From Bacteroidota bacterium (GTDB taxonomy: Bacteria > Bacteroidota > Bacteroidia > Bacteroidales > FEN-979): a stretch of DNA of 64,000 bases. The DNA is taken from contig JBAXOB010000014.1 in the NCBI GenBank assembly GCA_037133475.1, positions 8,298 to 72,297 of the forward strand. The letters run 5' to 3'. The notes under the pieces were generated by a model. That model had not been told where the DNA came from and searched no databases. It saw only the letters and a list, made by a program, of their open reading frames with translations. The position numbers and the translations under genes were made by a program. Positions 8,906 to 62,742 of this stretch are shown piece by piece. How positions within the stretch are numbered: position 1 is the stretch's first letter; the number at the start of each line of letters is the position of its first letter.

Positions 8906-9091
8906 TTAAAGTGATGAGATAATCTTGTGCAATTCCTCCTTCGTTTTTCCAAGCTTTATCTGCAGCCGGCCCAACATTTCATCCTTCTTGCCCGATTCAA
9001 ACATCAGGTCATTATCGGTTAAAGCGGCAAATTTTTGTTTGAGTTTGCCTTTCTGTTCATTCCAGGTCCCTTTTACTTCGGTAGTATTCAT
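8906..9091 (-). CDS. CsbD family general stress protein (copy 1)
   Basis: [41 protein letters not shown] is the CsbD/YjbJ signature. Confidence 0.93.
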
Positions 9092-9296: not shown

Positions 9297-9364
9297 ATGT
9301 GGGAATTATATAATTAATCTCCATAATTCTACAAGAAGGAATCAGTTTAATAGCGTTACCTTGA
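9297..9364 (+). promoter_or_regulatory. Regulon promoter cassette 2 (hybrid kinase 9405), divergent copy
   Basis: ATGTGG GAATTATATAAT-N9-TAATTCTACAAG-N21-TACCTTGA; same spacing, weaker match. Confidence 0.65.
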
Positions 9365-9404: not shown

Positions 9405-11936
9405 ATGTTAAACAATAAAAGCCAGGTGGAAACACCGGAAGACCAGACAAAGCTGGCTGACTCTGAAACCCGTTATCGCCGCCTCTTTGAAACGGCCAAG
9501 GACGGAATTCTGATTCTCGATGCCGAAACCGGCATGATCATGGATGTAAACCCGTTTTTAATAGAATTGCTGGGCTATTCCAAGGAACAGTTTATTGAAA
9601 AGGCAATATGGGAGATCGGTTTCTTCAAGGATATCGTGGCAAACCGGGAGAATTTTGCAGAATTACAGGTAAGGGAATACATCCGTTACGAGGATATGCC
9701 GCTTGAAACCGCCGACGGGCGCACGATCCATGTGGAGTTCGTGAGCAATGTCTACCTGGTCGACAAGCAAAAGGTAATCCAGTGCAATATCCGCGACATG
9801 ACCGAACGGGTCAGGGCCGAACTGGCCCTGGTCGTCTCTGAAACGAGATACCGCAGGCTCTTCGAAACAGCCCAGGATGGTATTCTTATCCTGGATGCCT
9901 CAACCGGGATGATCATGGATGTGAACCCGTTTTTAATTGAATTGCTGGGCTATACCAAGGAACAATTAATTGAAAAGGCTATCTGGGAGATTGGCTTTTT
10001 CAAGGATATCGTGGCAAACCAGGATAATTTCATGGAATTACAGCGCCGGGAATATATCCGTTATGAGAACATGCCCCTTGAAACCTCCGACGGGCGAACG
10101 ATTCATGTTGAATTTGTCAGCATTGTTTACCGGGTTGACAAGAAAAAGGTAATCCAGTGCAATATCCGCGACATCACCGACCGGGTCAGGGCTGAACGTT
10201 TTCAGAAACTTTCCAACGTTATCCTGAGGATACTGACCAGCAGCCTGGACCTGGAGAAACGCAGCATGGACATCATAAAGGCAATCCAGGAGGAAACGAA
10301 ATTTTCAGCGGTCGGGATTCGTCTGCAAAACCAGGAGGACTTTCCCTATTTTGTCCAGATCGGCTTTCCCGTTGAACTGATTCAAAGGGAAACCACCCTT
10401 GTTATCAGAGACGGGAAGGGCAGGGTATGCAGAGACAAAGATGGCCGGCAAATATTAGCATGTGCCTGTGGACTGGTACTATCCGGGAACACAGATCCTG
10501 CTTCACCATTTTGCACGGATTCAGGGAGTTTCTGGACAAATGATTCGTCGCAGATGTTATCCCTTCCAACCAACTTTGACCTGATACTTCATCCCCGGAA
10601 CATATGTATCCATGAGGGTTTTGGCTCAATTGCCATCATCCCCATCCTGGCCAATAAAAAAATCGTGGGTGTTCTGCAGCTGAATGAAAAGAAAAAAGGG
10701 GCCTTTACGCATGACATGATCCTCTTTTTTGAAGCGATCTGCCTGATAATCGGAACAGCAATCATGCGCAAGCAAAACACCGACGAACTCCTTATCGCAA
10801 AAGAACACGCCGAAGAGAGCGACCGGCTGAAATCAGCCTTCCTGGCCAACATGAGCCATGAGATCAGGACCCCGATGAACGGGATCCTCGGCTTTGCCGG
10901 GCTGTTGAAAGAGCCGGGGTTAACAGGCGAGGAGCAGGAAAAATACATCAGTATCATCGAAAAAAGCGGTGCCCGGATGCTCAATATCATCAACGACATT
11001 GTGAGCATCTCGAAAATTGAATCGGGGCAGATGGAAGTCTCCTTTTCAAAAACCAATGTAAACCAGCAGATGGAATACATCTATACCTTTTTCAAACCCG
11101 AGGCTGATCGTAAAAACATACAATTCAGGCTGGAAACCTCCTTAACTGCCGAGGATTCTATTATATATTCAGACCAGGAAAAGATAACCGCCATCCTGGT
11201 CAACCTCACCAATAATGCCCTTAAATTCTGCGACACAGGTTCCGTGGAGTTTGGATGCAAAATGAAGGGCAATTTCCTGGAATTCTTTGTGAAAGATACC
11301 GGTATCGGGATACCGGTACCGCGGCAAAAAGCAGTTTTTGATCGTTTTATCCAGGCTGATATCAGCGATAAAAGGGCATTCCAGGGAGCAGGCCTGGGAT
11401 TGTCCATTTCAAAAGCATACGTGGAAATGCTGGGTGGTTCCATAACGCTGGTCAGCGACGAAGGAAGGGGTTCCGAGTTTACCTTTACCATTCTCCATGC
11501 CCCCGAGGATGAATCAGCGGCGCCGAAGATCCAAGCATTCATGCCGGCAATTGAAGAGAACCATATCTCAAACCTCAATATACTGGTAGCAGAAGACGAC
11601 GAAACATCAGGAATTTTGATAAGCCTTGCCATCCGCAACCTGTCCAGGGAAATTTTCAGGGCCTCCAACGGCGCAGAAACCGTGGAGATTTGCCGTGCCA
11701 ATCCTGCAATCGATGTTATCCTGATGGACATGAAAATGCCCGTTATGGATGGATATTCAGCAACCCGGGAGATCCGCAAATTTAATAAAACAGTGGTTAT
11801 CATCGCGCAAACCGCTTACGGGCTTAGCGGCGACAAGGAGAAGGCGCTGGAGGCGGGATGCGACGGCTATATCGCAAAACCCTACAGCAATAATGCGCTG
11901 AGGGCCATACTAAACGTCTGCATGAAAAACAGGTAA
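9405..11936 (+). CDS. Hybrid sensor histidine kinase (PAS-PAS-GAF-HisKA-HATPase-REC)
   Basis: Two near-identical PAS domains, GAF, FLANMSHEIRTPMNGI H-box, DTGIG and GAGLGL G-boxes, receiver AEDD..LMDMKMP..K. Confidence 0.94.
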   Translation: MLNNKSQVETPEDQTKLADSETRYRRLFETAKDGILILDAETGMIMDVNPFLIELLGYSKEQFIEKAIWEIGFFKDIVANRENFAELQVREYIRYEDMPLETADGRTIHVEFVSNVYLVDKQKVIQCNIRDMTERVRAELALVVSETRYRRLFETAQDGILILDASTGMIMDVNPFLIELLGYTKEQLIEKAIWEIGFFKDIVANQDNFMELQRREYIRYENMPLETSDGRTIHVEFVSIVYRVDKKKVIQCNIRDITDRVRAERFQKLSNVILRILTSSLDLEKRSMDIIKAIQEETKFSAVGIRLQNQEDFPYFVQIGFPVELIQRETTLVIRDGKGRVCRDKDGRQILACACGLVLSGNTDPASPFCTDSGSFWTNDSSQMLSLPTNFDLILHPRNICIHEGFGSIAIIPILANKKIVGVLQLNEKKKGAFTHDMILFFEAICLIIGTAIMRKQNTDELLIAKEHAEESDRLKSAFLANMSHEIRTPMNGILGFAGLLKEPGLTGEEQEKYISIIEKSGARMLNIINDIVSISKIESGQMEVSFSKTNVNQQMEYIYTFFKPEADRKNIQFRLETSLTAEDSIIYSDQEKITAILVNLTNNALKFCDTGSVEFGCKMKGNFLEFFVKDTGIGIPVPRQKAVFDRFIQADISDKRAFQGAGLGLSISKAYVEMLGGSITLVSDEGRGSEFTFTILHAPEDESAAPKIQAFMPAIEENHISNLNILVAEDDETSGILISLAIRNLSREIFRASNGAETVEICRANPAIDVILMDMKMPVMDGYSATREIRKFNKTVVIIAQTAYGLSGDKEKALEAGCDGYIAKPYSNNALRAILNVCMKNR
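9462..10196 (+). repeat. Tandem 375-bp intragenic duplication (two PAS domains)
   Basis: TCTGAAAC.. at 9462 and 9837; translated SETRYRRLFETA(K/Q)DGILILDA...VIQCNIRD(M/I)T twice. Confidence 0.9.
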
Positions 11937-11990
11937 CCGGAACTTGTCGCAATTGCACCCCAAATACTTCATCCGGTGCCATTGTACCCT

Positions 11991-12190
11991 CATTCCATAA
12001 CTCCCTAATTCCCCCATTCCTGCATTCCTGCATTCCTGCATTGTTTGCATTGTCTGCATTGTCTGCATTGTCTGCATTGTCTGCATTCCCCCATTCCTGC
12101 ATTCCTGCATTCCTGCATTCCTGCATTCCTGCATTGTCTGCATTCCTGCATTCCAGCATTGTCTGCATTGTCTGCATTCCTGCATTGATT
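11991..12190. repeat. Composite 8-mer/9-mer tandem repeat (CATTCCTG / CATTGTCTG), about 24 units
   Basis: Directly visible; intergenic between convergent kinase and Nramp genes. Confidence 0.95.
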
Positions 12191-15703: not shown

Positions 15704-15889
15704 CTACAGGGATGCTATGATCCTGTTCAACTCCTCCTTGGTTTTCCCAAGCTTGACCTGGAGCCGCCCGATCATCTCATCCTGCTTGCCTGCTTCAAAC
15801 ATCACATCATTATCGGTTAACACCGCGAATTTTTGCCTGAGCCTTCCTTTATGTTCATTCCAGGTTCCCAGTACTTCAGTCGTATTCAT
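15704..15889 (-). CDS. CsbD family general stress protein (copy 2)
   Basis: MNTTEVLGTWNEHKGRLRQKFAVLTDND; close paralog of 8906-9091. Start set at the matching Met, downstream of cassette 3. Confidence 0.92.
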   Translation of the reverse strand: MNTTEVLGTWNEHKGRLRQKFAVLTDNDVMFEAGKQDEMIGRLQVKLGKTKEELNRIIASL

Positions 15890-15919
15890 GTTTGGTTTTT
15901 TATATGTTTTTGGATATTG

Positions 15920-27945: not shown

Positions 27946-29136
27946 TCAATGAGGAGGGATTTCTCCGCCCTTATGATCTTCGGGTTTTGCCACATGCGGT
28001 TGTGTAGGCTGTGACCTGGGCGCCTGGCCGGGATGCTGCTGCTGTGTTTGCGGCGGCTTCGAGGGCTGCTGCTGCTGCGGGGCCTGGCCGGGATGCTGTT
28101 GCTGTGTTTGCGGCGGTTTCGAAGGCTGCTGCTGCTGCGGGGCCTGGCCGGGATGCTGCTGCTGTGTTTGCGGCGGCTTCGTTGGCTGCTGCTGTTGCGG
28201 TGCCTGGCCGGTTCTCACCGGCGGCAATGACTGATGTTGTACCGGTTGACCTGTCTTCACAGGGGGTAAGGGGTGGTGTATCTCCTGTGGGTTCCCGGCG
28301 GGTTTCGGACTTGCCGCGGATCTCTGTGCAGGAGATTTGAAATCCTTCATATTTTCAACCTTTGCAGGCGCCGGTTTCGGGCCGGATGCCATATTTTTCT
28401 GAACCTGGGGCCTGTACAACTGCAGCTGGTTTTTATTCAGACTCTGCCCTTGTTTCGGGTTTTCCCTGATGGTCACCGGAACAATTGGCTTACCAGCGCG
28501 TTTTTCAACCTCCGATCTCCCGGGCCCGGTATTGTACCTTATATTACGGCCGTTATTTTCGCGGGGGTTGTTGATCACTGTGGAATTATGAACGATGGTG
28601 ACATTCCTTACGGAACTGACATAATAATTGTTTATATCATGCCGCCCAAAATCGCGGTCCCTGACAAAGGTCCACTGGTTATCCGGCACGTAGTAACTAT
28701 TGCCATAGGCAATACTGATACTGATCCCGGGACCAATGGGAGCCCAACCGTAATAACCTTCCGAGCTTCTCCACGTTACCCATCCCGGTCCCCACTCATT
28801 ATCGGGTACCCACATAGGTCCCCAGTTGGGATCGTCGAACCAGCGCCCATAGTGGAAAGGGGCCCATCCCCATGAGTAACCGGATACCCAGGTCCAGCCC
28901 TCGTCGGTGAAAATCCAGTATCCGTTTGTAGAATAGGGGATAAACCCCGGCCCGGCATTGGGCACCCACACATACCCCCAGGTAGGATTGTTTATCCAGG
29001 TACCGTAGGGACTCAGTTCATTATAAAATTCCTGGTAACTGACCGATGTGCCCTGAGCCGGTGCCCTCTGAGGCAACATCCCTGTAGCTGTTAGCAGGAC
29101 GAGGAATAAAACAATACATTTCATTTTAGCATTCAT
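27946..29136 (-). CDS. DUF6600-like secreted protein with Pro/Gln-rich tail
   Basis: FYNELSPYGTW..WGWAPFHYGRW..WGPGWVTWR..GWAP; low-complexity C-terminus. Confidence 0.85.
   Translation of the reverse strand: MNAKMKCIVLFLVLLTATGMLPQRAPAQGTSVSYQEFYNELSPYGTWINNPTWGYVWVPNAGPGFIPYSTNGYWIFTDEGWTWVSGYSWGWAPFHYGRWFDDPNWGPMWVPDNEWGPGWVTWRSSEGYYGWAPIGPGISISIAYGNSYYVPDNQWTFVRDRDFGRHDINNYYVSSVRNVTIVHNSTVINNPRENNGRNIRYNTGPGRSEVEKRAGKPIVPVTIRENPKQGQSLNKNQLQLYRPQVQKNMASGPKPAPAKVENMKDFKSPAQRSAASPKPAGNPQEIHHPLPPVKTGQPVQHQSLPPVRTGQAPQQQQPTKPPQTQQQHPGQAPQQQQPSKPPQTQQQHPGQAPQQQQPSKPPQTQQQHPGQAPRSQPTQPHVAKPEDHKGGEIPPH
28022..28211 (-). repeat. 60-bp coding tandem repeat x3 (GQAPQQQQPSKPPQTQQQHP)
   Basis: GCCTGGCCGG recurs at 28022, 28082, 28142 and 28202. 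Confidence 0.95.
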
Positions 29137-31320: not shown

Positions 31321-32421
31321 GTGATAACCAAAGAAGTAACCTTTCCGTTTTACCTCAGGGCCACCATTTTACTGGTGGGATTATTGGCACTCGTTGCCTT
31401 CCTGTACCTGGCCCAGCGGATCATTGTCCCGATCGTGTTTGCGACCATTGTAGCCATCCTGCTGCAGCCGGTTGTGAACATTTTCGTCAGGATAAAACTG
31501 AACAGGATCATTGCCATCGCCATCACACTGGTCCTGACCTTCCTGGTTATTGCCGCCTTTTTTGCACTCCTGTTTTCACAGGCCAGCCGTTTCAGCGAAT
31601 CATGGCCGCTCCTGGTCGACAGGTTTACCGTTATCCTCAACCAATCGATCACATGGTACAGCGGGTATTTCGAAATCAATCCCAAACGGATCCATGAGTG
31701 GATTGCCGATTCCAGGGAGGAACTCATCAGCAGCAGCACCTCGGCGATCGGTCACACCCTCTACACGATTGGCAGCGGACTGATTGTCGTATTCCTGGTG
31801 CCGGTCTATATCTTTATGATCCTTTACTATCAGCCCCTCCTGCTTGATTTTATCCACAAGTTGTTTAACGAAAGCCACCAGGGACAGGTAGCCGAAATTG
31901 TGACAAAAATAAAGGGCGTTATCCAGCGATACCTTACAGGGCTGATCATTGAGGCGGTGATGATCGCCGTCATGGATGCCACGGCCTTGTTTATCATCGG
32001 AATCGATTACGCAATCCTGCTGGGCATCATCGGGGCGGTGCTGAACGTGATTCCCTACATAGGGGGAATCATCGCCGTGGCTTTGCCCATGATGATTGCC
32101 GTAGCCACCAAATCGACGGTATGGCCCGCCTTTTACGTTCTTGCCGCCTATTATTTCATCCAGATGGTTGACAACCATTATATCGTGCCGGTAATTGTAT
32201 CCTCCAAAGTGAAGATCAATGCCCTCTTTTCGGTTATCGTGGTCATTGCAGGAAATGCCCTGTGGGGAATTTCAGGCATGTTCCTGTCGATCCCGCTGCT
32301 GGCCATTGTAAAGCTCATTTTCGACCACATCGGCCCATTGAAGCCCTGGGGATTTCTGCTGGGCGACACCATGCCGGAGCTGATTACCTTCAAACCTTCC
32401 GGTAAAAAACTGAGAATTTAA
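31321..32421 (+). CDS. AI-2E family transporter
   Basis: LNVIPYIGG, QMVDNHYIVP, ALWGISGMFLSIPL. Confidence 0.92.
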   Translation: MITKEVTFPFYLRATILLVGLLALVAFLYLAQRIIVPIVFATIVAILLQPVVNIFVRIKLNRIIAIAITLVLTFLVIAAFFALLFSQASRFSESWPLLVDRFTVILNQSITWYSGYFEINPKRIHEWIADSREELISSSTSAIGHTLYTIGSGLIVVFLVPVYIFMILYYQPLLLDFIHKLFNESHQGQVAEIVTKIKGVIQRYLTGLIIEAVMIAVMDATALFIIGIDYAILLGIIGAVLNVIPYIGGIIAVALPMMIAVATKSTVWPAFYVLAAYYFIQMVDNHYIVPVIVSSKVKINALFSVIVVIAGNALWGISGMFLSIPLLAIVKLIFDHIGPLKPWGFLLGDTMPELITFKPSGKKLRI

Positions 32422-32528
32422 CTGTTACAAATAATTCGCAGTTGGTTGAAGGTTAAATTTACCGCAAGTTGCGCAGTGTTTCAGGCATTGTTGAAGGCAT
32501 AGCTATAAAGTTGACAAAGTCCTGAAAA

Positions 32529-32596
32529 TTGTGTGAATTATACAAATAATTTCAGGAATTGTGTAAAACTAAATCCTGTAATGTCCCCCAAATTTG
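32529..32596 (+). promoter_or_regulatory. Regulon promoter cassette 11 (araC-1, kinase, RR operon; putative autoregulation)
   Basis: TTGTGT GAATTATACAAA-N9-GAATTGTGTAAA-N21-CAAATTTG. Confidence 0.85.
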
Positions 32597-32751
32597 CACG
32601 ATATCTTGCGGGGTGCAGGACATGAACGTTCAACCTTGACTCAACTCATTTTTTCAGAACGGGTCATTTCACGAAAGCAGTGATCATAATGCCTTTTTTT
32701 TTCAGAATTACGGATGAAAAAGGGTATGCATTCCAAAAGAAAACAATCCGG

Positions 32752-33321
32752 ATGAAAATTTATATTAAATACATGGTGAGTATCCGCTGTAAAATGGTGG
32801 TAAAAACCATCCTGAAAAAACTGGGGCTCCATTTCATCGTGGTCGACCTGGGCGAAGTGGAGATCATGGAAACACTCAGCGGGGAGCAGCACAGCCAGCT
32901 GGCGGTTGCATTACACGATGCCGGGCTTGAACTGATGGATGACAAAAGAGCGGTCCTGATTGAAAAGATCAAGAAGGTCATTATTGAAATGGTGCATTAT
33001 TCCGATGAAATGATCAAGGTTAACTTTTCTGATTTTTTAAGTAAAAAACTAAATCATGACTACACCTACCTGGCCAACCTGTTTTCAGAGGTCCAGGGAA
33101 CTACGATCGAGCATTTTATTATCTCCCATAAAGTAGAACGAATAAAAGAGCTGATCATTTATGACGAGCTAAACATCACGGAAATAGCATGGAAGCTGAA
33201 TTACAGCAGCGTTGCCCATCTGTCGAACCAGTTTAAAAAAGTCACAGGCCTCTCCCCTTCCCATTTTAAACAGCTGAAGGATAAACGGCGAAACCCGATC
33301 GAGGATGTGGGAAATGATTAA
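32752..33321 (+). CDS. AraC family transcriptional regulator with short N-terminal HMA-like domain (paralog 1)
   Basis: MKIYIKYMVSIRCKMVV...YTYLANLFS..LNITEIAWKLNYSSVAHLSNQFKKVTGLSPS double HTH. Confidence 0.93.
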   Translation: MKIYIKYMVSIRCKMVVKTILKKLGLHFIVVDLGEVEIMETLSGEQHSQLAVALHDAGLELMDDKRAVLIEKIKKVIIEMVHYSDEMIKVNFSDFLSKKLNHDYTYLANLFSEVQGTTIEHFIISHKVERIKELIIYDELNITEIAWKLNYSSVAHLSNQFKKVTGLSPSHFKQLKDKRRNPIEDVGND

Positions 33322-33372
33322 CGGATATCTCATAAATATTAGACAAATTATATGGAAATAGCAAAATCTTTG
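33305..33372 (+). promoter_or_regulatory. Degenerate 16th cassette at the araC-1 3' end
   Basis: ATGTGG GAAATGATTAAC-N9-ATAAATATTAGA-N21-AATCTTTG; spacing exact, boxes decayed. Confidence 0.35.
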
Positions 33373-36036
33373 GACTCGCAGTACACCAGGAGTTTGATGG
33401 AAACCTGCCTGGATCCCCTCGTGACCATCAACGAGAAGGGCCAGATAACCGACATGAACGCGGCATTGGTGACCATTACAGGAATTTCGCGTCAAAACCT
33501 GTCCGGAACAAACTTCTGCGATTGCTTTACCGAACCCGGTCATGCCACGGCGCTGTATATGGAAATTTTCACAAAGGGATCTGTTGGCGGGTCACATCTT
33601 TCACTTGTCAATCCTAAGGGTGCAATTTCCGAAGTGCTGATCAACGGCTCTGTTTACAAGGATAAAAATGGGATCGTACTGGGTGCCGTGGTAGTTGCCC
33701 GTGACATTGCCGGGCAAAAGCGGGCGCAGGAGCTGGTTATCGCCAACAGGGAACTTGCCTTCCAGAACGATGAAAAGGAAAAGCGTGCCCAGGAACTGAT
33801 CGTCGCAAACAAGGAACTTGCCTTCCAGAACGATGAAAAGGAAAAGCGTGCCCAGGAGCTGATCATCGCCAACAAGGAACTGGCCTTCCAGAACGATGAA
33901 AAGGAAAAGCGTGCCCAGGAGCTGATCATCGCGAATAAAGAGCTGGCCTTCCAGCACACCGAAAAGGAAAAAAGGGCTGCAGAACTGATCATTGCCAATA
34001 AAGAGCTGGCCTTTCTGAATGTCGAAAAAGAGAAACGGGCAGCAGAACTGATTATTGCCAACTATGCCCGCAGCCTGATTGAAGCAAGCCTTGATCCCTT
34101 GTTTACCATCAGCCTCGAAGGGAAAATCACCGATATGAACAAGGCTTCGGTTGATATTACCGGCGTGGCGCGTGAAAAATTGCTGGGTTCCGATTTTTTC
34201 GACTATTTCACCGAACCGCAAAAGGCACGGGAAGTTTACCTGGAGGTCTTTGCCAATGGCTATGTGGCGGATTACCCGCTCACGATCAGGGATGGAAAAC
34301 TGACCGATGTCCTTTTCAACGGCTCTGTTTATACCGATGACCAGGGCGAGGTTATTGGCGTGGTGGTCGTTGCACGGGATATAACCGATCAAAAAAGGGT
34401 TGCAACGGAATTAACCGAGGCCATCGTGTTTGCCGAACTGGCCACCGGAATCGCCGAAGAGGCCAAGATCAAGGCCGAAAATGCCACCCTTATTGCAGAA
34501 AATGCGGTCAAGGCAAAACAGCAGTTCTTGTCGAACATGAGCCATGAAATCCGTACCCCGATGAATGCCATTATCGGTTTCACCAAGGTGCTGCTGAAAA
34601 CCGACCTGTCGGTCAAGCAGCGGGAATACCTGACTGCTATCAAAATGAGCGGCGACGCACTCATTGTGCTGATCAACGATATCCTCGACCTTGCCAAGGT
34701 GGATGCCGGCAAAATGATATTTGAGCAAACCCCTTTTAAAATTGCCCTTTCCATTTCCGCCATGCTGCACCTGTTCGACACTAAAATACAGGAAAAAAAC
34801 CTGCACCTGTTTAAAGAGTATGATGACCGTATCCCTGACGTATTGGTTGGCGACCCGGTCAGGCTGCACCAGATCATCCTGAACCTGGTCAGCAACGCCG
34901 TGAAATTCACCACCAAGGGGTCGATAACCGTGAGCGTCCATATGATCAAGGAGGATGCAGAAACCGTAACCATTGAATTTACCGTTTCAGATACCGGTAT
35001 AGGCATCGCAGAAAACAAGATTGACAAGATTTTTGAAAATTTCCAGCAGGCTTCGAGCGGCACGTCAAGGTTGTATGGTGGCACAGGCCTTGGTCTTGCC
35101 ATTTCGAAACAATTGGTTGAAGCCCAGGATGGGACGATCCGCGCCGAAAGCACGATCAATGTCGGCTCCACCTTCAGCTTTATCCTGTGTTTCCTGAAAA
35201 CCAAGGTGGAGGCCGAATCTGATATGCAGATCCTGGAACTTGACAGCGAGATTAAAAACATCAAAGTGCTGGTTGCCGAGGATATCCCCCTTAACCAATT
35301 ACTGATGAAGACATTGCTGGATGATTTTGGTTTTGAACGGGATATTGCGGCCAATGGGAAGATTGCGGTTGAAAAGCTCAGGGAGAAACCCTATGATATA
35401 ATCCTGATGGACTTGCAGATGCCCGAGATGAATGGGTTTGAGGCGACAGAATATATCCGCAGCACGCTGAAACTTCAAATTCCGATCATTGCGTTAACGG
35501 CCGATGTAACCACGGTTGACCTGGCCAAATGTAAAGCGGTTGGGATGAATGACTACATCGCCAAACCTGTAGATGAAAGGCTGCTTTACAGCAAAATTGT
35601 CGGGTTGGTAAAAAAACCCGGGCTAACCAAGGAACCTGATCTATCAGAAACGGAATTGATGACCGTTGCAAAGCCCAGGTGCACCGACCTGGAATACCTT
35701 ATGCGCCGTACAAAATCAAATCCCAAACTGATGATGGAGATGATTTCACTCTACCTGGAACAAACACCCCTGCTGATCACCATCATGAAGAAAAGTTTCA
35801 GGGAAAAAGACTGGACATCGCTGCATGCTGCGGTGCATAAGATGATCCCCTCTTTTGCGATTATGGGGATCAGCGTTGACTTTGAAAACATGGCAAAAAA
35901 AGTCCAGGACTATGCCGGGGTGCAACAGCAGGCCGAAAGCATGCTGGACCTGGTCAGGCAGCTTGGGAACGTATGCACACAGGCATGCGGCGAGCTGGAA
36001 GAGGAGTTTAACCGGATCAAAAACGATAACCCGTGA
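33352..36036 (+). CDS. Hybrid histidine kinase (PAS, coiled-coil repeats, PAS, HisKA, HATPase, REC, HPt)
   Basis: FLSNMSHEIRTPMNAI, GGTGLGL, LMDLQMP, C-terminal AAVHKMIPS HPt-like helix. Confidence 0.94.
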   Translation: MEIAKSLDSQYTRSLMETCLDPLVTINEKGQITDMNAALVTITGISRQNLSGTNFCDCFTEPGHATALYMEIFTKGSVGGSHLSLVNPKGAISEVLINGSVYKDKNGIVLGAVVVARDIAGQKRAQELVIANRELAFQNDEKEKRAQELIVANKELAFQNDEKEKRAQELIIANKELAFQNDEKEKRAQELIIANKELAFQHTEKEKRAAELIIANKELAFLNVEKEKRAAELIIANYARSLIEASLDPLFTISLEGKITDMNKASVDITGVAREKLLGSDFFDYFTEPQKAREVYLEVFANGYVADYPLTIRDGKLTDVLFNGSVYTDDQGEVIGVVVVARDITDQKRVATELTEAIVFAELATGIAEEAKIKAENATLIAENAVKAKQQFLSNMSHEIRTPMNAIIGFTKVLLKTDLSVKQREYLTAIKMSGDALIVLINDILDLAKVDAGKMIFEQTPFKIALSISAMLHLFDTKIQEKNLHLFKEYDDRIPDVLVGDPVRLHQIILNLVSNAVKFTTKGSITVSVHMIKEDAETVTIEFTVSDTGIGIAENKIDKIFENFQQASSGTSRLYGGTGLGLAISKQLVEAQDGTIRAESTINVGSTFSFILCFLKTKVEAESDMQILELDSEIKNIKVLVAEDIPLNQLLMKTLLDDFGFERDIAANGKIAVEKLREKPYDIILMDLQMPEMNGFEATEYIRSTLKLQIPIIALTADVTTVDLAKCKAVGMNDYIAKPVDERLLYSKIVGLVKKPGLTKEPDLSETELMTVAKPRCTDLEYLMRRTKSNPKLMMEMISLYLEQTPLLITIMKKSFREKDWTSLHAAVHKMIPSFAIMGISVDFENMAKKVQDYAGVQQQAESMLDLVRQLGNVCTQACGELEEEFNRIKNDNP
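33718..34062 (+). repeat. 63-bp coding tandem repeat, about 5.5 copies (EKEKRAQELIIANKELAFQND)
   Basis: Visible in both DNA and protein between the two PAS domains. Confidence 0.95.
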
Positions 36037-36136
36037 GACCCTGATCAAGGTTCACTCGTAGAGAAATGTGCCCGTAACGGGCTTAATCCCCAGAACAGGG
36101 GCCTAAATGATTCGCAAATAAATTAATCTGCAGATA

Positions 36137-36571
36137 ATGAAAACCGAAAATAAGATCAAATTGTTCCTGGTGGATGACGATGCCCTGTTTCTGAAATCAC
36201 TGGAAATTGAATTCCTGCAGCATGCCGACTTTGCCATTGAAACCTTTGCAACCGGCGAACTTTGTATAGCGGAATTATCGCACCTGCCGGATGTGATCAT
36301 CCTGGACTACATGCTCGACGGTATCGACAGGTTCGCCATGAACGGGATCGACACCCTCGATTTAATCAAGGCCTTCGACCCTGATATTCCTGTTGTCATG
36401 CTGTCATCGCAGGATAAAATCGAGGTCGCTGTGAATTGCATGCACCACAGGGCATTCGATTATGTGGTGAAAAGTGAAACTGCCTTCCTGCGGCTGCAGA
36501 AGATCATCTCCACAATTTTCAAGTACAAGAAAATGGAAAAGGAGTTGAACTGGTATATGGAGAGGATGTAA
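36137..36571 (+). CDS. Single-domain response regulator
   Basis: LVDDD, ILDY phosphoacceptor, MLSS, DYVVK; no output domain, only a short C-terminal helix. Confidence 0.93.
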   Translation: MKTENKIKLFLVDDDALFLKSLEIEFLQHADFAIETFATGELCIAELSHLPDVIILDYMLDGIDRFAMNGIDTLDLIKAFDPDIPVVMLSSQDKIEVAVNCMHHRAFDYVVKSETAFLRLQKIISTIFKYKKMEKELNWYMERM

Positions 36572-36749
36572 AACCTTCCCCTAAGATCAATGTTAACCCC
36601 CTTGTTGATCCGGCAGACCTGCATGCAAAATTGGTTCGCTGTAATACCTGAATTCCTGCAAGTTCCCTCCCGGGACGACCATTGAAGCAGGGTTCCAAAA
36701 TGTTTTATCCCTCCTACTTTTAACTGGCCTGTATCATTTCAAACCCGTT

Positions 36750-36817
36750 ATGTGTGAATCATGTAACATAATTTTGAAATTATATAACACATTCCGCATC
36801 ACCGCGAACGACCTTTG
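36750..36817 (+). promoter_or_regulatory. Regulon promoter cassette 12 (acidic protein, USP and downstream genes)
   Basis: ATGTGT GAATCATGTAAC-N9-AAATTATATAAC-N21-GACCTTTG. Confidence 0.92.
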
Positions 36818-36822
36818 TCATT

Positions 36823-37182
36823 ATGAAAACACAACATGACAAACCGGATTTGCCGGACCAGACCAACGATTGTAATATGAATACTGATTTCACAGGATAT
36901 CCCCTCTACCCTTCAAGTGAGGATATTTACAACAAGCTACGGGAGGAGCGGGATGTGAATCCCGAAGATATCGCCAAGGCCAAGGACCCTGATGAAACTG
37001 ACAATGCTGTATTCCCGTATGATTCCTCTATCAACACGGGTTTTCCCGGCAGCGAACTTGACGTTCCGGGTTCTGATCTGGATGACCTGATGGAGGAGGT
37101 GGGAGAAGAGGATGAGGAGAATAACTTTTACAGCCTGGCCAATAGCGAACAGGGTGAAACCGACGATGATAACTCAATGTAA
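36823..37182 (+). CDS. Acidic hypothetical protein
   Basis: GYPLYPSSEDIY..ELDVPGSDLDD..GEEDEENNFYSL; very Asp/Glu-rich. Confidence 0.82.
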   Translation: MKTQHDKPDLPDQTNDCNMNTDFTGYPLYPSSEDIYNKLREERDVNPEDIAKAKDPDETDNAVFPYDSSINTGFPGSELDVPGSDLDDLMEEVGEEDEENNFYSLANSEQGETDDDNSM

Positions 37183-48324: not shown

Positions 48325-48392
48325 CAAAGATGCAGCGGAATGGTTAAAGGAGTGTTACACAACTTTGAATGAAAGTTGCATCATTCACACAT
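48325..48392 (-). promoter_or_regulatory. Regulon promoter cassette 15 (PAP2-DUF748), overlapping the araC-2 stop codon
   Basis: ATGTGT GAATGATGCAAC-N9-AAGTTGTGTAAC-N21-CATCTTTG; AAT GTG TGA encodes Asn-Val-stop of araC-2. Confidence 0.92.
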
Positions 48393-48945
48393 TTTCGAGG
48401 GCGCTCCGCTTTTTTGTTTTGAGCGACTTAAAAAAGGAGGGCGTCAGGCCGGTCACCTTTTTAAACTGGTGGGAAAGATGCGCCACACTGCTGTAATGCA
48501 GTTTCCAGGCAATTTCGGAAAGGTTAAGCTCGTCGTAGATGATCAGCTCTTTTACCCTTTCAATTTTATGAAGGATCATAAAATGTTCAATGGTAATCCC
48601 TTTGGTTTCGGAAAAGATATTGGCAAGATAGGTATAATCGTAATCCAGTTTTTCGCACAGGTAATCTGAAAAATTCGTTTTTGGCAGTTCATCGGAATAA
48701 TGAATCATTTCAATAATGACATTCTGAATTTTTTCAATCAGGATGGCCTTTTTATCGTCCATCAGTTCAAGCCCCGATCTTCGTAAGGCAATTTTCAGTT
48801 GTTCACGCTGCTGTTCAGAAATATCTTCCATAACCTCAACTGTTCCCAGATCCACGGTAAGATGGTGCAGTCCCATTTTTTTCAATTCCTCCTTTACCAC
48901 CATTTTACAACGGATGCTTACCATGTATTTGATATAGAGCCTCAT
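48385..48945 (-). CDS. AraC family transcriptional regulator (paralog 2)
   Basis: MRLYIKYMVSIRCKMVV..LSEIAWKLHYSSVAHLSHQFKKVTGLTPS; highly similar to 32752-33321. Confidence 0.93.
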   Translation of the reverse strand: MRLYIKYMVSIRCKMVVKEELKKMGLHHLTVDLGTVEVMEDISEQQREQLKIALRRSGLELMDDKKAILIEKIQNVIIEMIHYSDELPKTNFSDYLCEKLDYDYTYLANIFSETKGITIEHFMILHKIERVKELIIYDELNLSEIAWKLHYSSVAHLSHQFKKVTGLTPSFFKSLKTKKRSALENV

Positions 48946-59781: not shown

Positions 59782-62088
59782 ATGAACGCAAATGGAAAGA
59801 TATTTCCGGTAATCATCATATGGCTAACAGGGACCATTATTACCCTTACAGGCCTTACGGCCGCGATTGGCTGGTTTTCCGGGAATAAAACCCTGATGGC
59901 CATCATTCCCGGGCTGGAGCCGATGATGGTAAACTCGTCGGTTTGTTTCTTTGCAGCTGGTATCGCACTGCTTTCATCCGCGTTGACGAAGGGCAGGTCC
60001 AGGTTGTACGTGGTACGCGCGCTTTCCATGGTGCTCATCTTCTTCGGCGTGCTGACCCTCATGGAATATTTTTTCCACCAGGACCTTGGCATCAACAACC
60101 TCTTTATCAAAGACAGGTATAGCAGGACAATTTTTTTTGGCGGCCACATGACCCTTTCAGCAGCGCTGAACTTTTTCCTTGCGGGGATTGCCCTTTATTA
60201 TATCCATTCCGCCGGTAAGGTTTCATTCTGGATTGCCCAGGTTGCCGCATTGCTGACAGGGGTTATCTCGTGGATTGTGCTGGTGGGGTACCTGTACAAT
60301 ATCGGGCAGGAGTTCTACATAGGTCCTTTTTCGACCATGACCATCACCTCGGCCACCCTCTTTTTCCTCCTGGCAATAGGCATTTTTATCTGTTACCCCG
60401 AACAGGGTATATTTTCAGTTCTTTATGGTCACGGCAATGGAACCATACTGGCCAGGCTGTTTTTCGTGGCTTCAGTAGGTGTCCCGCTGCTAGCCGGTTT
60501 CCTGGTGGTGATTGGCGAAATTGCCGGCTGGTTCAATACAGCATCCGGATCAGCCATTGCCGCCATCATCAATGTAATCGTGCCGGGCACCCTGATCATT
60601 CTCTCGGGCAGGTGGCTCAACAGGTCGGAACAACTCGTGCAGGACAGCCATCACGCACTGCTGAAAAGCGAAGAACACTACAGGGGGTTGTTTGATCATA
60701 TGGTCGAGGGTTTTGCCAACCATAAAATGCTTTTTAAGGATGGCAAACCTTATGATTATATTTACCTGGATGTTAATGAGGCTTTTAAAAAAATGACAGG
60801 TCTCACCGATGTGATCGGGAAAAGGGCAAGTGAAGTCGTGCACAATATCCAGCAGGACAACCTTGATATTTTTGAACGGTACCGTGAAGTTGCCGCTTCG
60901 TCAAGGCCATCGAGGTTTGAGACCTTTTCGCCGGCCCTTAAATCCTGGTTTTCCATCTATATATATACCTTGGAAAATGATGAGTTTGTAACGGTTATTG
61001 ATAACGTTACGCAACGTAAAGAGGCTGAAGACGCCATCAGGCTGAATGAAGAAAAATTAAGGTTGCTGTTTGATGTACTGCCTGTAGGAGTCTCGTTTCA
61101 TGATGCTGACAGCAGGATCGTTCAAATGAACCATGCCCTGGTGAAAATCCTCTCAGTTTCAGAGGATGCCCTGCTTGACGGGAGCCATCGCATCCGGACT
61201 TTTATCGACAGCAGCGGAAGGCCTGTTTCACAGGAAGAATGGCCTGTCATCAGCGCCCTGCGTGAGAAAATTCCGGTTCATGACAAAGAGATCGGCATCT
61301 GGCTCGATAACGGGGAAACCAGGTGGCTTAATGTCAATGCCGCCCCTGTTTCCTCTGCCAACCTGGGGGCGGTCGTGGTTATCACCGACATTACCCGTCA
61401 AAAACAGATCGAGATGGACCTGGTCGCCTCACAGCGGGATCTGCGCGATACCCTCACCCGGCTGACGGAAATGGAGGAGGAGATCAGGCGTAAAGCAGCC
61501 ATCGAACTGCACGACCAGGTAGGACAGAATCTCACGGCATTGGTCATTAACATGAACTACCTCAAATCCCAGCTCATTTCCGGAGCAAACCCGCGACTGG
61601 TGAAATTCCTCGACGATTCGATCCAGCTTCTTGAAGATACCATCGCTCGGACACGCGACATCATGGCCGAACTTCGGCCTGCCGTACTCGAGGATTACGG
61701 GCTCTATGCAGCAATACAGTGGTATGCCACCCAGTTTTCAGGCAGAACCGGATTGCCGGTTATGGTCCAGGGGCGTGACCTTGCCTATCCGCTTCCCGCC
61801 CGGGTTGAGTATGCCATGTTCCGTATCGTTCAGGAGGCCTTTACCAATATTGCCAAACATGCCCATGCTTTGAAAGCAAGTATCAGCCTGGTGGAATCGG
61901 AACGAGAAGTAACCCTGGAAATTGCAGATGACGGAGTTGGTTTCGACACGGGTTCATTGAAACATAAAGAAAATCCCACACTGGGGATGATTGTCATGAA
62001 GGAACGCAGCAAGGCAGCAGGCGGCATTTTCAACATTACCTCGTTACCGGGACACGGAACCACGATTACATTTCAGATAACCCGCTGA
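59782..62088 (+). CDS. Membrane PAS sensor kinase (HisKA_3, NarX/UhpB type)
   Basis: Multiple TMs, two PAS domains, ELHDQVGQNL, QEAFTNIAKHA, DDGVGFD. Confidence 0.92.
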   Translation: MNANGKIFPVIIIWLTGTIITLTGLTAAIGWFSGNKTLMAIIPGLEPMMVNSSVCFFAAGIALLSSALTKGRSRLYVVRALSMVLIFFGVLTLMEYFFHQDLGINNLFIKDRYSRTIFFGGHMTLSAALNFFLAGIALYYIHSAGKVSFWIAQVAALLTGVISWIVLVGYLYNIGQEFYIGPFSTMTITSATLFFLLAIGIFICYPEQGIFSVLYGHGNGTILARLFFVASVGVPLLAGFLVVIGEIAGWFNTASGSAIAAIINVIVPGTLIILSGRWLNRSEQLVQDSHHALLKSEEHYRGLFDHMVEGFANHKMLFKDGKPYDYIYLDVNEAFKKMTGLTDVIGKRASEVVHNIQQDNLDIFERYREVAASSRPSRFETFSPALKSWFSIYIYTLENDEFVTVIDNVTQRKEAEDAIRLNEEKLRLLFDVLPVGVSFHDADSRIVQMNHALVKILSVSEDALLDGSHRIRTFIDSSGRPVSQEEWPVISALREKIPVHDKEIGIWLDNGETRWLNVNAAPVSSANLGAVVVITDITRQKQIEMDLVASQRDLRDTLTRLTEMEEEIRRKAAIELHDQVGQNLTALVINMNYLKSQLISGANPRLVKFLDDSIQLLEDTIARTRDIMAELRPAVLEDYGLYAAIQWYATQFSGRTGLPVMVQGRDLAYPLPARVEYAMFRIVQEAFTNIAKHAHALKASISLVESEREVTLEIADDGVGFDTGSLKHKENPTLGMIVMKERSKAAGGIFNITSLPGHGTTITFQITR

Positions 62089-62091
62089 TTT

Positions 62092-62742
62092 ATGGCTATT
62101 TCAGTTATCATAGCAGATGATCACACCATCGTTCGCGAAGGACTCCGCCTGATCCTGGAATCCTCGGGCGTGGCCTCGATCGTTTCAGAAGCGAAAAACG
62201 GACTCGAAGCGGTCCACCAGGCTCGCCAGTATAAACCTGAGGTAATCCTGATGGATATCGCCATGCCGGTGATGAATGGCATTGCCGCGACAGAACGCAT
62301 CCACGAAGAATCCCCCTCCATCGCCATCGTGATCCTCTCCATGCAGTCAACCCTGGAGGATATTTACCGCGCCTTAAGGGCCGGGGCGACCGGGTACCTG
62401 CTGAAGGAATCGGCCGGCGCCGAAGTCATTGAAGCCATTATCGCAAGTAGCCGCGGCAAACGATACCTGTCACGCAAAGTCGATGACATCCTGATCGACG
62501 GCTATATTCACCAGCGCAACGGCATGAATGGCATCGGCCCTCTCGAAAGCCTGAGCCCCAGGGAACTGGAGGTTCTTCAAATGGTAGTCGAAGGATTATC
62601 CTCCCAGCAAATAGCAGAATTACTCTTCCTCTCTGCGAAAACCGTTGAAACATACCGGTCACGATTGATGCAGAAGCTCGGCATCAAGGACATCCCCGCC
62701 CTGGTCAAATTTGCCATCCAGTACGGGGTGACTAAAATTTAA
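62092..62742 (+). CDS. NarL/LuxR family response regulator
   Basis: ADDH..LMDIAMP receiver plus LSPRELEVL..KTVETYRSRLMQKL HTH. Confidence 0.95.
   Translation: MAISVIIADDHTIVREGLRLILESSGVASIVSEAKNGLEAVHQARQYKPEVILMDIAMPVMNGIAATERIHEESPSIAIVILSMQSTLEDIYRALRAGATGYLLKESAGAEVIEAIIASSRGKRYLSRKVDDILIDGYIHQRNGMNGIGPLESLSPRELEVLQMVVEGLSSQQIAELLFLSAKTVETYRSRLMQKLGIKDIPALVKFAIQYGVTKI

Follow-up and report, generated by a model that had tools for sequence, protein, structure and literature searches.

We analysed a three-gene unit in a 64,000-nt stretch of DNA (hereafter the window; contig JBAXOB010000014.1) from a bacterium of the phylum Bacteroidota. Together with its predicted activator site, called cassette 11, the unit spans positions 32527-36571 and encodes an AraC-type protein (AraC1), a soluble hybrid kinase ending in a predicted HPt domain, and a receiver-only response regulator (RR). 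The three genes most likely constitute one signalling module, as they are conserved together across Bacteroidota and sometimes fused to each other. We put at roughly 0.55 the probability that RR acts on AraC1 by contact, and that a pair of AraC1 molecules on the two half-sites of a cassette activates transcription, including that of its own operon. Judging from sequence comparisons, the module would be a signal-dependent input added to an existing regulon. A previous sequence-only reading of this DNA had seen here an autoregulated signalling core, in which a phosphorelay controls the AraC protein by protein-protein contact in a manner loosely analogous to partner switching. The conserved unit, the conserved cassette, the AraC-receiver fusions and the HPt relay speak for that interpretation, while the partner switching found no support and the role as core of the regulon had to be abandoned. 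The features of the unit are the following.

32527..32567 (+): cassette 11, predicted two-part activator site 5' of AraC1 (direct-repeat family D9)
32532-32545 (+): core of cassette 11, TGTGAATTATACAA; its second half-site is TGTGTAAA
32593..32596 (+): TTTG box of cassette 11, a -7-like promoter box 61 nt past the core start
32752..33321 (+): AraC1, 189 aa; HMA-like N-terminal domain (residues 2-61), linker helix (64-83), AraC-type domain with two helix-turn-helix motifs
33352..36036 (+): hybrid kinase, 894 aa; soluble, PAS, five 21-aa coil repeats, PAS, HisKA, HATPase, REC, HPt
33653..34062 (+): five 63-nt tandem repeats encoding the 21-residue coiled-coil unit (repeat family D1)
35737..35994 (+): predicted HPt domain of the kinase; AAVHKMIPSFAIMG contains its phospho-accepting His
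36137..36571 (+): RR, 144 aa; Pfam Response_reg alone, C-terminus KKMEKELNWYMERM
36748..36788 (+): next cassette, predicted to drive a 119-aa open reading frame and a Usp gene; 3' limit of the three-gene unit

The three proteins and their predicted phosphorelay

Open reading frames and a repeat search confirmed the layout that had been described, namely cassette 11, araC-1, a gap of 30 nt between the AraC1 stop and the kinase ATG, the kinase gene and the gene for the receiver-only protein. The gap between the last two genes is 100 nt. A crude scan of 32400-36900 found no terminator-like sites on the + strand. The longest frame of AraC1 (32680..33321) would give 213 aa from a GTG, and the ATG at 32752 was set as the start from an alignment with twelve relatives.

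In the kinase, Pfam recognized two PAS domains, HisKA (residues 388-453, 73 bits), HATPase_c (500-612, 99.9 bits) and Response_reg (639-749, 90.2 bits), and the translation shows an H-box (SHEIRTP), N and G boxes and the aspartate of the receiver (ILMDLQMP). The protein is thus a hybrid kinase by its HisKA histidine with HATPase_c and by its internal receiver with an acceptor Asp. It is also soluble, as had been proposed, since the highest 19-residue Kyte-Doolittle mean is 1.40 and no membrane segment was found. Its HPt region stays below the Pfam threshold (Hpt 18.5 bits against a cut-off of 24.6, E 0.0024), and the assignment comes from a profile of 20 orthologous kinase C-termini, which matched solved HPt structures with the histidine aligned (3myf, E 1.8e-4; AHP2 4pac, E 0.005); the motif HK[MI][IH]PSF is present in 47 of 47 aligned rows. 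Compared with NCBIfam, the kinase aligned best with BarA, TorS and ArcB (E 9e-114 to 5e-99, the ArcB alignment covering residues 382-872), and it remained under the equivalog cut-off of each of them (BarA 381 bits versus 890, TorS 346 versus 676, ArcB 333 versus 838).

Between the PAS domains lie the five 21-residue coiled-coil repeats, which were absent from the earlier description. A rough count of repeat cores in 46 orthologous kinase frames, some of them truncated, gave 0 to 9, and the sensor part of these orthologues varies as well (631-1834 aa, membrane segment in 3 of 46), while the AraC protein stays 67-89% identical. This repeat (core AN.EL.FQN) is found in 0 to 9 units among the kinases of loci L062-L126 and, in the protein P0128, it joins an RR-type receiver to a kinase core.

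For RR, Pfam gave Response_reg at residues 10-114 (62.9 bits) and no other family. Residues D13, D14, D57, S90, K112, W139 and Y140 are invariant in 51 sequences; the acidic pocket, acceptor Asp, Ser and Lys stand at the conserved positions and predict a CheY-like phosphorylatable receiver. The long alpha-5 helix of RR ends in the conserved W139-Y140, and a matching helix is predicted at residues 316-343 of a natural AraC-receiver fusion. The catalytic and acceptor residues are all intact, and a His-Asp-His-Asp relay that starts at the kinase and ends on RR is well supported as a prediction; given the HPt domain, four steps are the natural reading of the phosphorelay proposed before. The absence of a DNA-binding response regulator from the island holds for about 8.9-49 kb of the window, where Pfam located receiver domains only in a kinase at 9405-11936, in the kinase of the unit and in RR. 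A LuxR-type response regulator (62092-62742), paired with a HisKA_3 kinase (59782-62088), sits 13.7 kb past the last cassette.

AraC1 is a member of the AraC/XylS family by its Pfam matches (HTH_18 60 bits with a cut-off of 33.6, E 2.8e-16; HTH_AraC 31 bits with a cut-off of 26.6) and by a seven-helix domain that matches the structures of AraT, AdpA and MarA (TMt 0.69-0.81), the AraT domain being its best fold match. By sequence, the closest solved relative of this DNA-binding domain is Lin2118 (3oou), an unnamed Listeria protein, and other close ones are YesN (3lsg), AraT (6swi) and a Bacteroides hybrid two-component protein (12aw). In the AlphaFold2 model (pLDDT 88.4), the seven-helix domain is preceded by a long helix (64-83) and by a beta-alpha-beta-beta-alpha-beta domain at residues 2-61, with strands at 2-6, 28-32 and 35-38, a last strand at 60-61 and helices at 11-23 and 44-56. 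This model and Foldseek assign the N-terminal domain to the HMA fold of metallochaperones: GolB (4y2i) matched with TMt 0.71 and 26% identity and Atx1 (2xmv) with TMt 0.73, at E-values of only 0.2 since the query was the whole AraC1 protein. Up to an E-value of 10, no Pfam family, HMA included, was found in the N-terminal 93 residues. AraC1 lacks the metal motif M-x-C-x-x-C and reads M-V-S-I-R-C, the first Cys being lost; Ser10, Arg12 and Cys13 are invariant in 50 sequences, and the C-x-x-C is kept by more distant AraC paralogues (L054, L059, L011).

Conserved linkage and natural fusions

We looked for the unit in a set of 40 related genomes, counting an AraC1/2-type gene at 60% identity or more. 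Such a gene is present in 15 of the 40 and an RR orthologue in 11, and all 11 genomes holding the RR orthologue also have an AraC1-type match, nine of them as ordered triads. The order AraC1-kinase-RR was seen in 9/10 related loci with an AraC1 orthologue, the tenth, on a contig of the one further genome with an AraC1 orthologue, being cut off inside the kinase. Scanning public genomes with an AraC alignment gave 79 loci, from Flavobacterium, Chitinophagaceae, Prolixibacteraceae, Saprospiraceae, Cytophagales, Lentimicrobiaceae and others. In at least 56 of these 79 Bacteroidota loci (several contigs are cut), an RR orthologue lies downstream of the AraC gene on the same strand, and in 54 of those 56 a kinase or REC-HPt gene stands between the two, for example a separate 271-aa REC-HPt protein in L096. 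The AraC-kinase gap is 6-72 nt, or an overlap, in most loci, and in 40 of 46 the spacing from the kinase gene to that of RR is -37 to +12 nt, an overlap or a near contact; L111, L190 and L191 lack an intervening kinase, AraC and RR being immediate neighbours. In a quick tree, RR linkage clusters in a single clade of AraC proteins (77 of 89 rows, SH-aLRT 92). The synteny of the three genes across Bacteroidota, on which the sequence-only reading had made its proposal depend, is therefore conserved in related (9/10) and distant (54/79) loci. Cultured bacteria also hold the module (Flavobacterium fluvii DSM 19978, F. urumqiense, F. fructosi and Arcicella aquatica LMG 21963), and genetics is therefore feasible.

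Proteins in which the partners are joined were found from both ends of the unit. Of 120 listed proteins that are longer than AraC1 and related to it, 32 measure 333-344 aa and consist of AraC and receiver domains only, at least 62 carry an AraC match together with an H-box and an HPt motif, and 2 more have AraC and the HPt motif without an H-box. AraC stands at the N-terminus of the AraC-kinase fusions (P0005), and it is joined to an HPt domain alone in P0024 (360 aa, sequence read), an AraC-HPt fusion being found at L109 as well. In P0048 the receiver half, which ends in LNWFEDRM, shows 69% identity to RR across 143 residues. The fused AraC-receiver frame was open in 10/10 metagenome contigs, and in nine of them (not in L158) a kinase lies directly upstream, the gene order being kinase, then AraC-receiver. 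Longer relatives of RR numbered 42; the 31 that are 61-70% identical comprise 23 AraC, 6 kinase and 2 HPt fusions (both HPt-RR proteins and one kinase fusion were read as sequences), and no other output domain was seen among these 31.

AraC and receiver in one polypeptide, as found in this metagenomic lineage, are a classic sign of two proteins that would work together physically. The AlphaFold2 model of a natural AraC-receiver fusion (mean pLDDT 75.7, pTM 0.49, linker 178-204 below 50) did not pack the receiver confidently on the AraC part and bears neither way. G279 and G363 were rejected as distant AraC-receiver fusions, being separate adjacent genes read through a stop.

A distant second version of the arrangement occurs in three genomes of three families, where a Cys-free HMA-like AraC is followed after about 20 nt by a different receiver-only protein of 148-149 aa; in L231 and L232 the receiver is in turn followed by a kinase that we label CHASE3-type. 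These second triad loci are:

L231, 3045-5859 (-)
L232, 4742-7571 (+)
L060, 7739-8883 (-)

Among the loci with the module itself, L095 is filed under a Candidatus Saccharibacteria metagenome-assembled genome; its AraC1, kinase and RR are 73-81% identical to those of Bacteroidota, in the tree it falls together with a contig of Bacteroidia, and the L095 contig is probably mis-binned. In four loci of the same genus as the window (L046, L047, L048, L051), a P-type ATPase, 28-29% identical to the window's own, follows directly after RR, at the place where the window carries a cassette and the Usp operon.

The cassette promoter, the regulon and the proposed mechanism

Allowing at most one mismatch, the window contains 15 copies of the 14-nt core TGTGAATNATRYAA where 0.35 are expected, and no shuffle out of 100 gave as many; the 4.6-Mb genome holds 16 exact matches, 12 of them inside the window. 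A second half-site, TGTAAC, follows 21 nt downstream in each cassette copy, and TTTG stands exactly 61 nt after the core start in 15/15 window cassettes, in one of them as TTGA. We call this TTTG a -7-like box on the basis of TAnnTTTG, which we take to be the Bacteroidota -7 consensus. The cassette thus has the predicted make-up of a complete promoter on a fixed plan, with two tandem activator sites and a -7-like box. One more full copy exists elsewhere in the genome (L001). Another site, L002 (C10:98294), has the core without the second half-site and the fixed spacing and was discarded as probably a chance match.

The genes behind the other cassettes encode two CsbD proteins, BON/MCRA, YceI, MlaE/MlaD, an AI-2E-type transporter, an ice-binding-like protein and OmpA-type proteins, and further Usp with downstream DnaJ/MerR_2, PAP2 and DUF748 genes. 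In 39 of 55 RR-linked loci, a cassette (at most 2 mismatches) is found within 300 nt 5' of the AraC gene, mostly 85-100 nt before its start codon. Moreover, cassette counts in the genus track the AraC1/2-type regulators, with 11-30 copies in 11 genomes that have one and 0-8 in 13 that do not.

These observations can be combined in a mechanism. The PAS domains of the kinase would sense a cytoplasmic signal and the HisKA histidine would autophosphorylate, the phosphate then passing to the receiver Asp of the kinase, to its C-terminal HPt His and finally to Asp57 of RR. In the key step, RR, which has no output domain, would act on AraC1 by direct contact, altering its dimerisation or its ability to activate; phosphorylated RR may either turn AraC1 on or release it. 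Two copies of AraC1 would bind in tandem to the two half-sites of the cassette, 21 bp apart, and the cassette, at its fixed distance 5' of the -7-like box, would replace an upstream promoter element. From the position of cassette 11 we infer positive feedback of AraC1 on its own operon, while the other cassettes would drive stress and envelope genes (CsbD, BON, YceI, Usp, DnaJ/MerR-type, OmpA, Mla, PAP2 and similar genes). More tentatively, and with the odds somewhat against it, the module could bring signals into a general stress response of Bacteroidota that has yet to be described. A DNA-bound three-protein complex would form, in which a metallochaperone-fold AraC activator is switched in trans by a detached receiver that the HPt domain has loaded.

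The window encodes a second regulator of the same type:

48385..48945 (-): AraC2, a paralogue 70% identical to AraC1, with neither RR nor kinase adjoining and no cassette on its 5' side

The recognition helices of AraC2 and AraC1 are near-identical, and AraC2 probably uses the same sites and works without a relay. The best core match 5' of AraC2 carries 5 mismatches. Its stop codon (48385-48387) lies inside a cassette (48376-48389), and an AraC2-type stop codon within the cassette of the next gene was also noted in six distant loci (L123, L128, L130, L133, L137, L139, at 7557).

Other parts of the window were noted as well. Two paralogous CsbD-like genes, at 8906-9091 (-) and 15704-15892 (-), encode 61 and 62 aa (Pfam CsbD, E 3.8e-13 and 2e-10), each directly behind a cassette and both within a pair of 188-nt repeats that are 79% identical. 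The kinase at 9405-11936 (+) is a soluble PAS-PAS-HisKA-HATPase-REC protein of 843 aa that has no HPt domain and sits behind a weaker cassette-like site at 9300 (one mismatch, TTGA at +61); it might act as a donor to the HPt domain of the 33352-36036 kinase. Tandem units of 8 and 9 nt (CATTCCTG, GCATTGTCT) are dense at 11975-12186, between that kinase and a Nramp gene, and three 60-nt tandem repeats, 93-95% identical, lie at 28019-28211 inside a DUF6600 gene (27946-29136, -).

Competing explanations and comparison with known systems

Several results weigh against a control of AraC1 by contact with RR. The genomes G020, G021 and G035 have 11, 11 and 5 cassettes and an AraC2-type regulator but no RR orthologue; because of them, the module is better described as an added input than as the signalling core that it had been called. 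G016, of the same genus, has 8 exact cassette cores, and no AraC1/2-type gene was found in its 94% complete assembly, only an AraC paralogue at 36-38%. In an even draw of 400 Bacteroidota genomes, with only the best 10 or 5 candidates per genome scored, the HMA-AraC family was present in 132 and an RR orthologue in 12, and therefore most family members would work without such a receiver. RR-linked and RR-free AraCs differ only at position 28 (F versus Y) and at the tail residues P182 and I183, so that no AraC1-specific docking surface stands out in the alignments, and the occupancy of the cassettes by AraC1 rather than AraC2 is putative. A receiver of this kind can also serve another output, as 10 of the other 11 longer RR relatives are receiver-PP2C proteins, 48-55% identical (P0136-P0141 and P0143-P0146, 417-428 aa), a domain pair that we take to be that of the Bacillus cereus SigB activator RsbY; P0142, 64% identical over 70% of RR, combines a receiver with PF21760 and PF22599. 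Finally, the AraC-receiver fusions fall into a single clade inside that of the RR-linked AraCs and are therefore to be counted as one evolutionary event; additional events gave rise to the AraC-kinase, AraC-HPt and HPt-RR fusions.

Part of these results would be expected if the three genes were only co-transcribed, AraC1 acting through its abundance or by means of its HMA-like domain (such as a thiol or ligand switch at Cys13) and the kinase and RR being cargo of the regulon, with RR signalling to another target or serving as a phosphate sink that tunes the kinase. A regulon running without kinase and RR in three genomes, the rarity of RR beside HMA-AraC genes in the phylum, the missing AraC1-specific surface and the receivers joined to PP2C phosphatases all fit this explanation, and the invariance of S10, R12 and C13 suggests that the HMA-like domain has a function of its own. 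We nonetheless regard co-transcription alone as rather unlikely, considering that AraC is naturally fused to receiver, kinase and HPt domains, that the receiver fusions closest to RR show no other output, that RR orthologues occurred only in related genomes with an AraC1-type match, and that AraC and RR can be direct neighbours without a kinase between them. The kinase itself could instead be the direct partner, holding or releasing AraC1, while RR would only drain or return phosphate through the HPt domain and so set the state of the kinase. The AraC-kinase protein is indeed the commonest fused form among the relatives listed, AraC-HPt fusions exist, and the AraC and kinase genes are very close or overlapping in most loci. 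On the contrary, the AraC-receiver fusion has a separate kinase gene upstream in nine of ten contigs, no kinase gene adjoins the AraC-RR pair in L111, L190 and L191, and the sensor part varies freely beside a well-conserved AraC; a direct action of the kinase on AraC1 appears improbable to us. That three functionally unrelated genes merely stand side by side is scarcely credible, given an order kept in related and distant loci, overlapping gene ends and the fusions. Control of AraC1 by contact with RR is thus the reading that we prefer.

Partner switching, to which the module had been likened, finds no support here. RsbV/RsbW/SigB and PhyR/NepR/EcfG serve to turn on genes of the general stress response, and the present regulon includes CsbD, Usp, BON and YceI genes, but the output is an AraC activator and not a sigma factor; a Pfam scan of 54 open reading frames of the window found no anti-sigma factor or anti-sigma kinase, no antagonist or STAS domain, no PP2C and no sigma-like domain. 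Like the unorthodox kinases ArcB, BarA, TorS and EvgS, the kinase would combine a HisKA-HATPase-REC core with an HPt domain and relay phosphate in four steps to a response regulator that is a separate protein. It differs from ArcB, BarA and TorS in scoring far below the family cut-offs, in being soluble, in its inputs (PAS domains and coiled-coil repeats) and in having a partner without a DNA-binding domain.

At the promoter, the nearest parallel is given by AraC/XylS activators at tandem direct repeats beside a promoter, as AraC at I1-I2, XylS and RhaS. Two direct half-sites 21 bp apart at a fixed distance from a core promoter element are alike; the Bacteroidota promoter type is different, and so is the effector domain, HMA-like and not cupin or sugar-binding.

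A receiver governing an AraC-type output with two helix-turn-helix motifs is likewise found in REC-AraC response regulators of the YesN/AraT type and in Bacteroides hybrid two-component systems, and the module may work like an AraC-output response regulator taken apart. REC-AraC regulators have an N-terminal receiver and a C-terminal AraC domain in one polypeptide, whereas here the two are separate proteins, and in the natural fusions the order is reversed, the receiver following HMA-AraC after a linker of about 27 residues for which disorder is predicted; moreover, AraC1 has an HMA-like N-terminal domain and the phosphate would come via an HPt step. Bacteroides hybrid systems unite periplasmic sensor, kinase, receiver and AraC in one membrane protein, and here the kinase is soluble and the AraC separate. 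Because the genes are separate and the natural fusions reversed in domain order, we place the module outside this group.

We found no description of the module, or of an HMA-AraC regulator in Bacteroidota, in open-access PubMed Central and bioRxiv, and to our knowledge no regulator of a general stress response has been established in Bacteroidota. The locus offers a concrete circuit for such work: a rigid promoter element, two near-identical activators that could use it and a phosphorelay on one of them.

Receiver-only proteins are reported to alter a DNA-binding regulator by phosphorylation-dependent contact, FlmD acting on SoxR (PMC8880074) and VemR on HrpG (PMC9923393). As receiver-only proteins that bind a transcription factor are thus known, the principle is not new. 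The targets in those cases are MerR-type and OmpR-type regulators of Proteobacteria, not in a fixed operon with the receiver, whereas the putative target here is an HMA-AraC protein, the genes are co-inherited and natural fusions exist. The module would be a clean case of an output-less receiver finding its output, with the natural fusions pointing to the partner ahead of experiment. If this is true, control by a stand-alone receiver would be shown for the first time for an activator of the AraC family, and the natural fusions, which join every pair of partners, would record the contacts.

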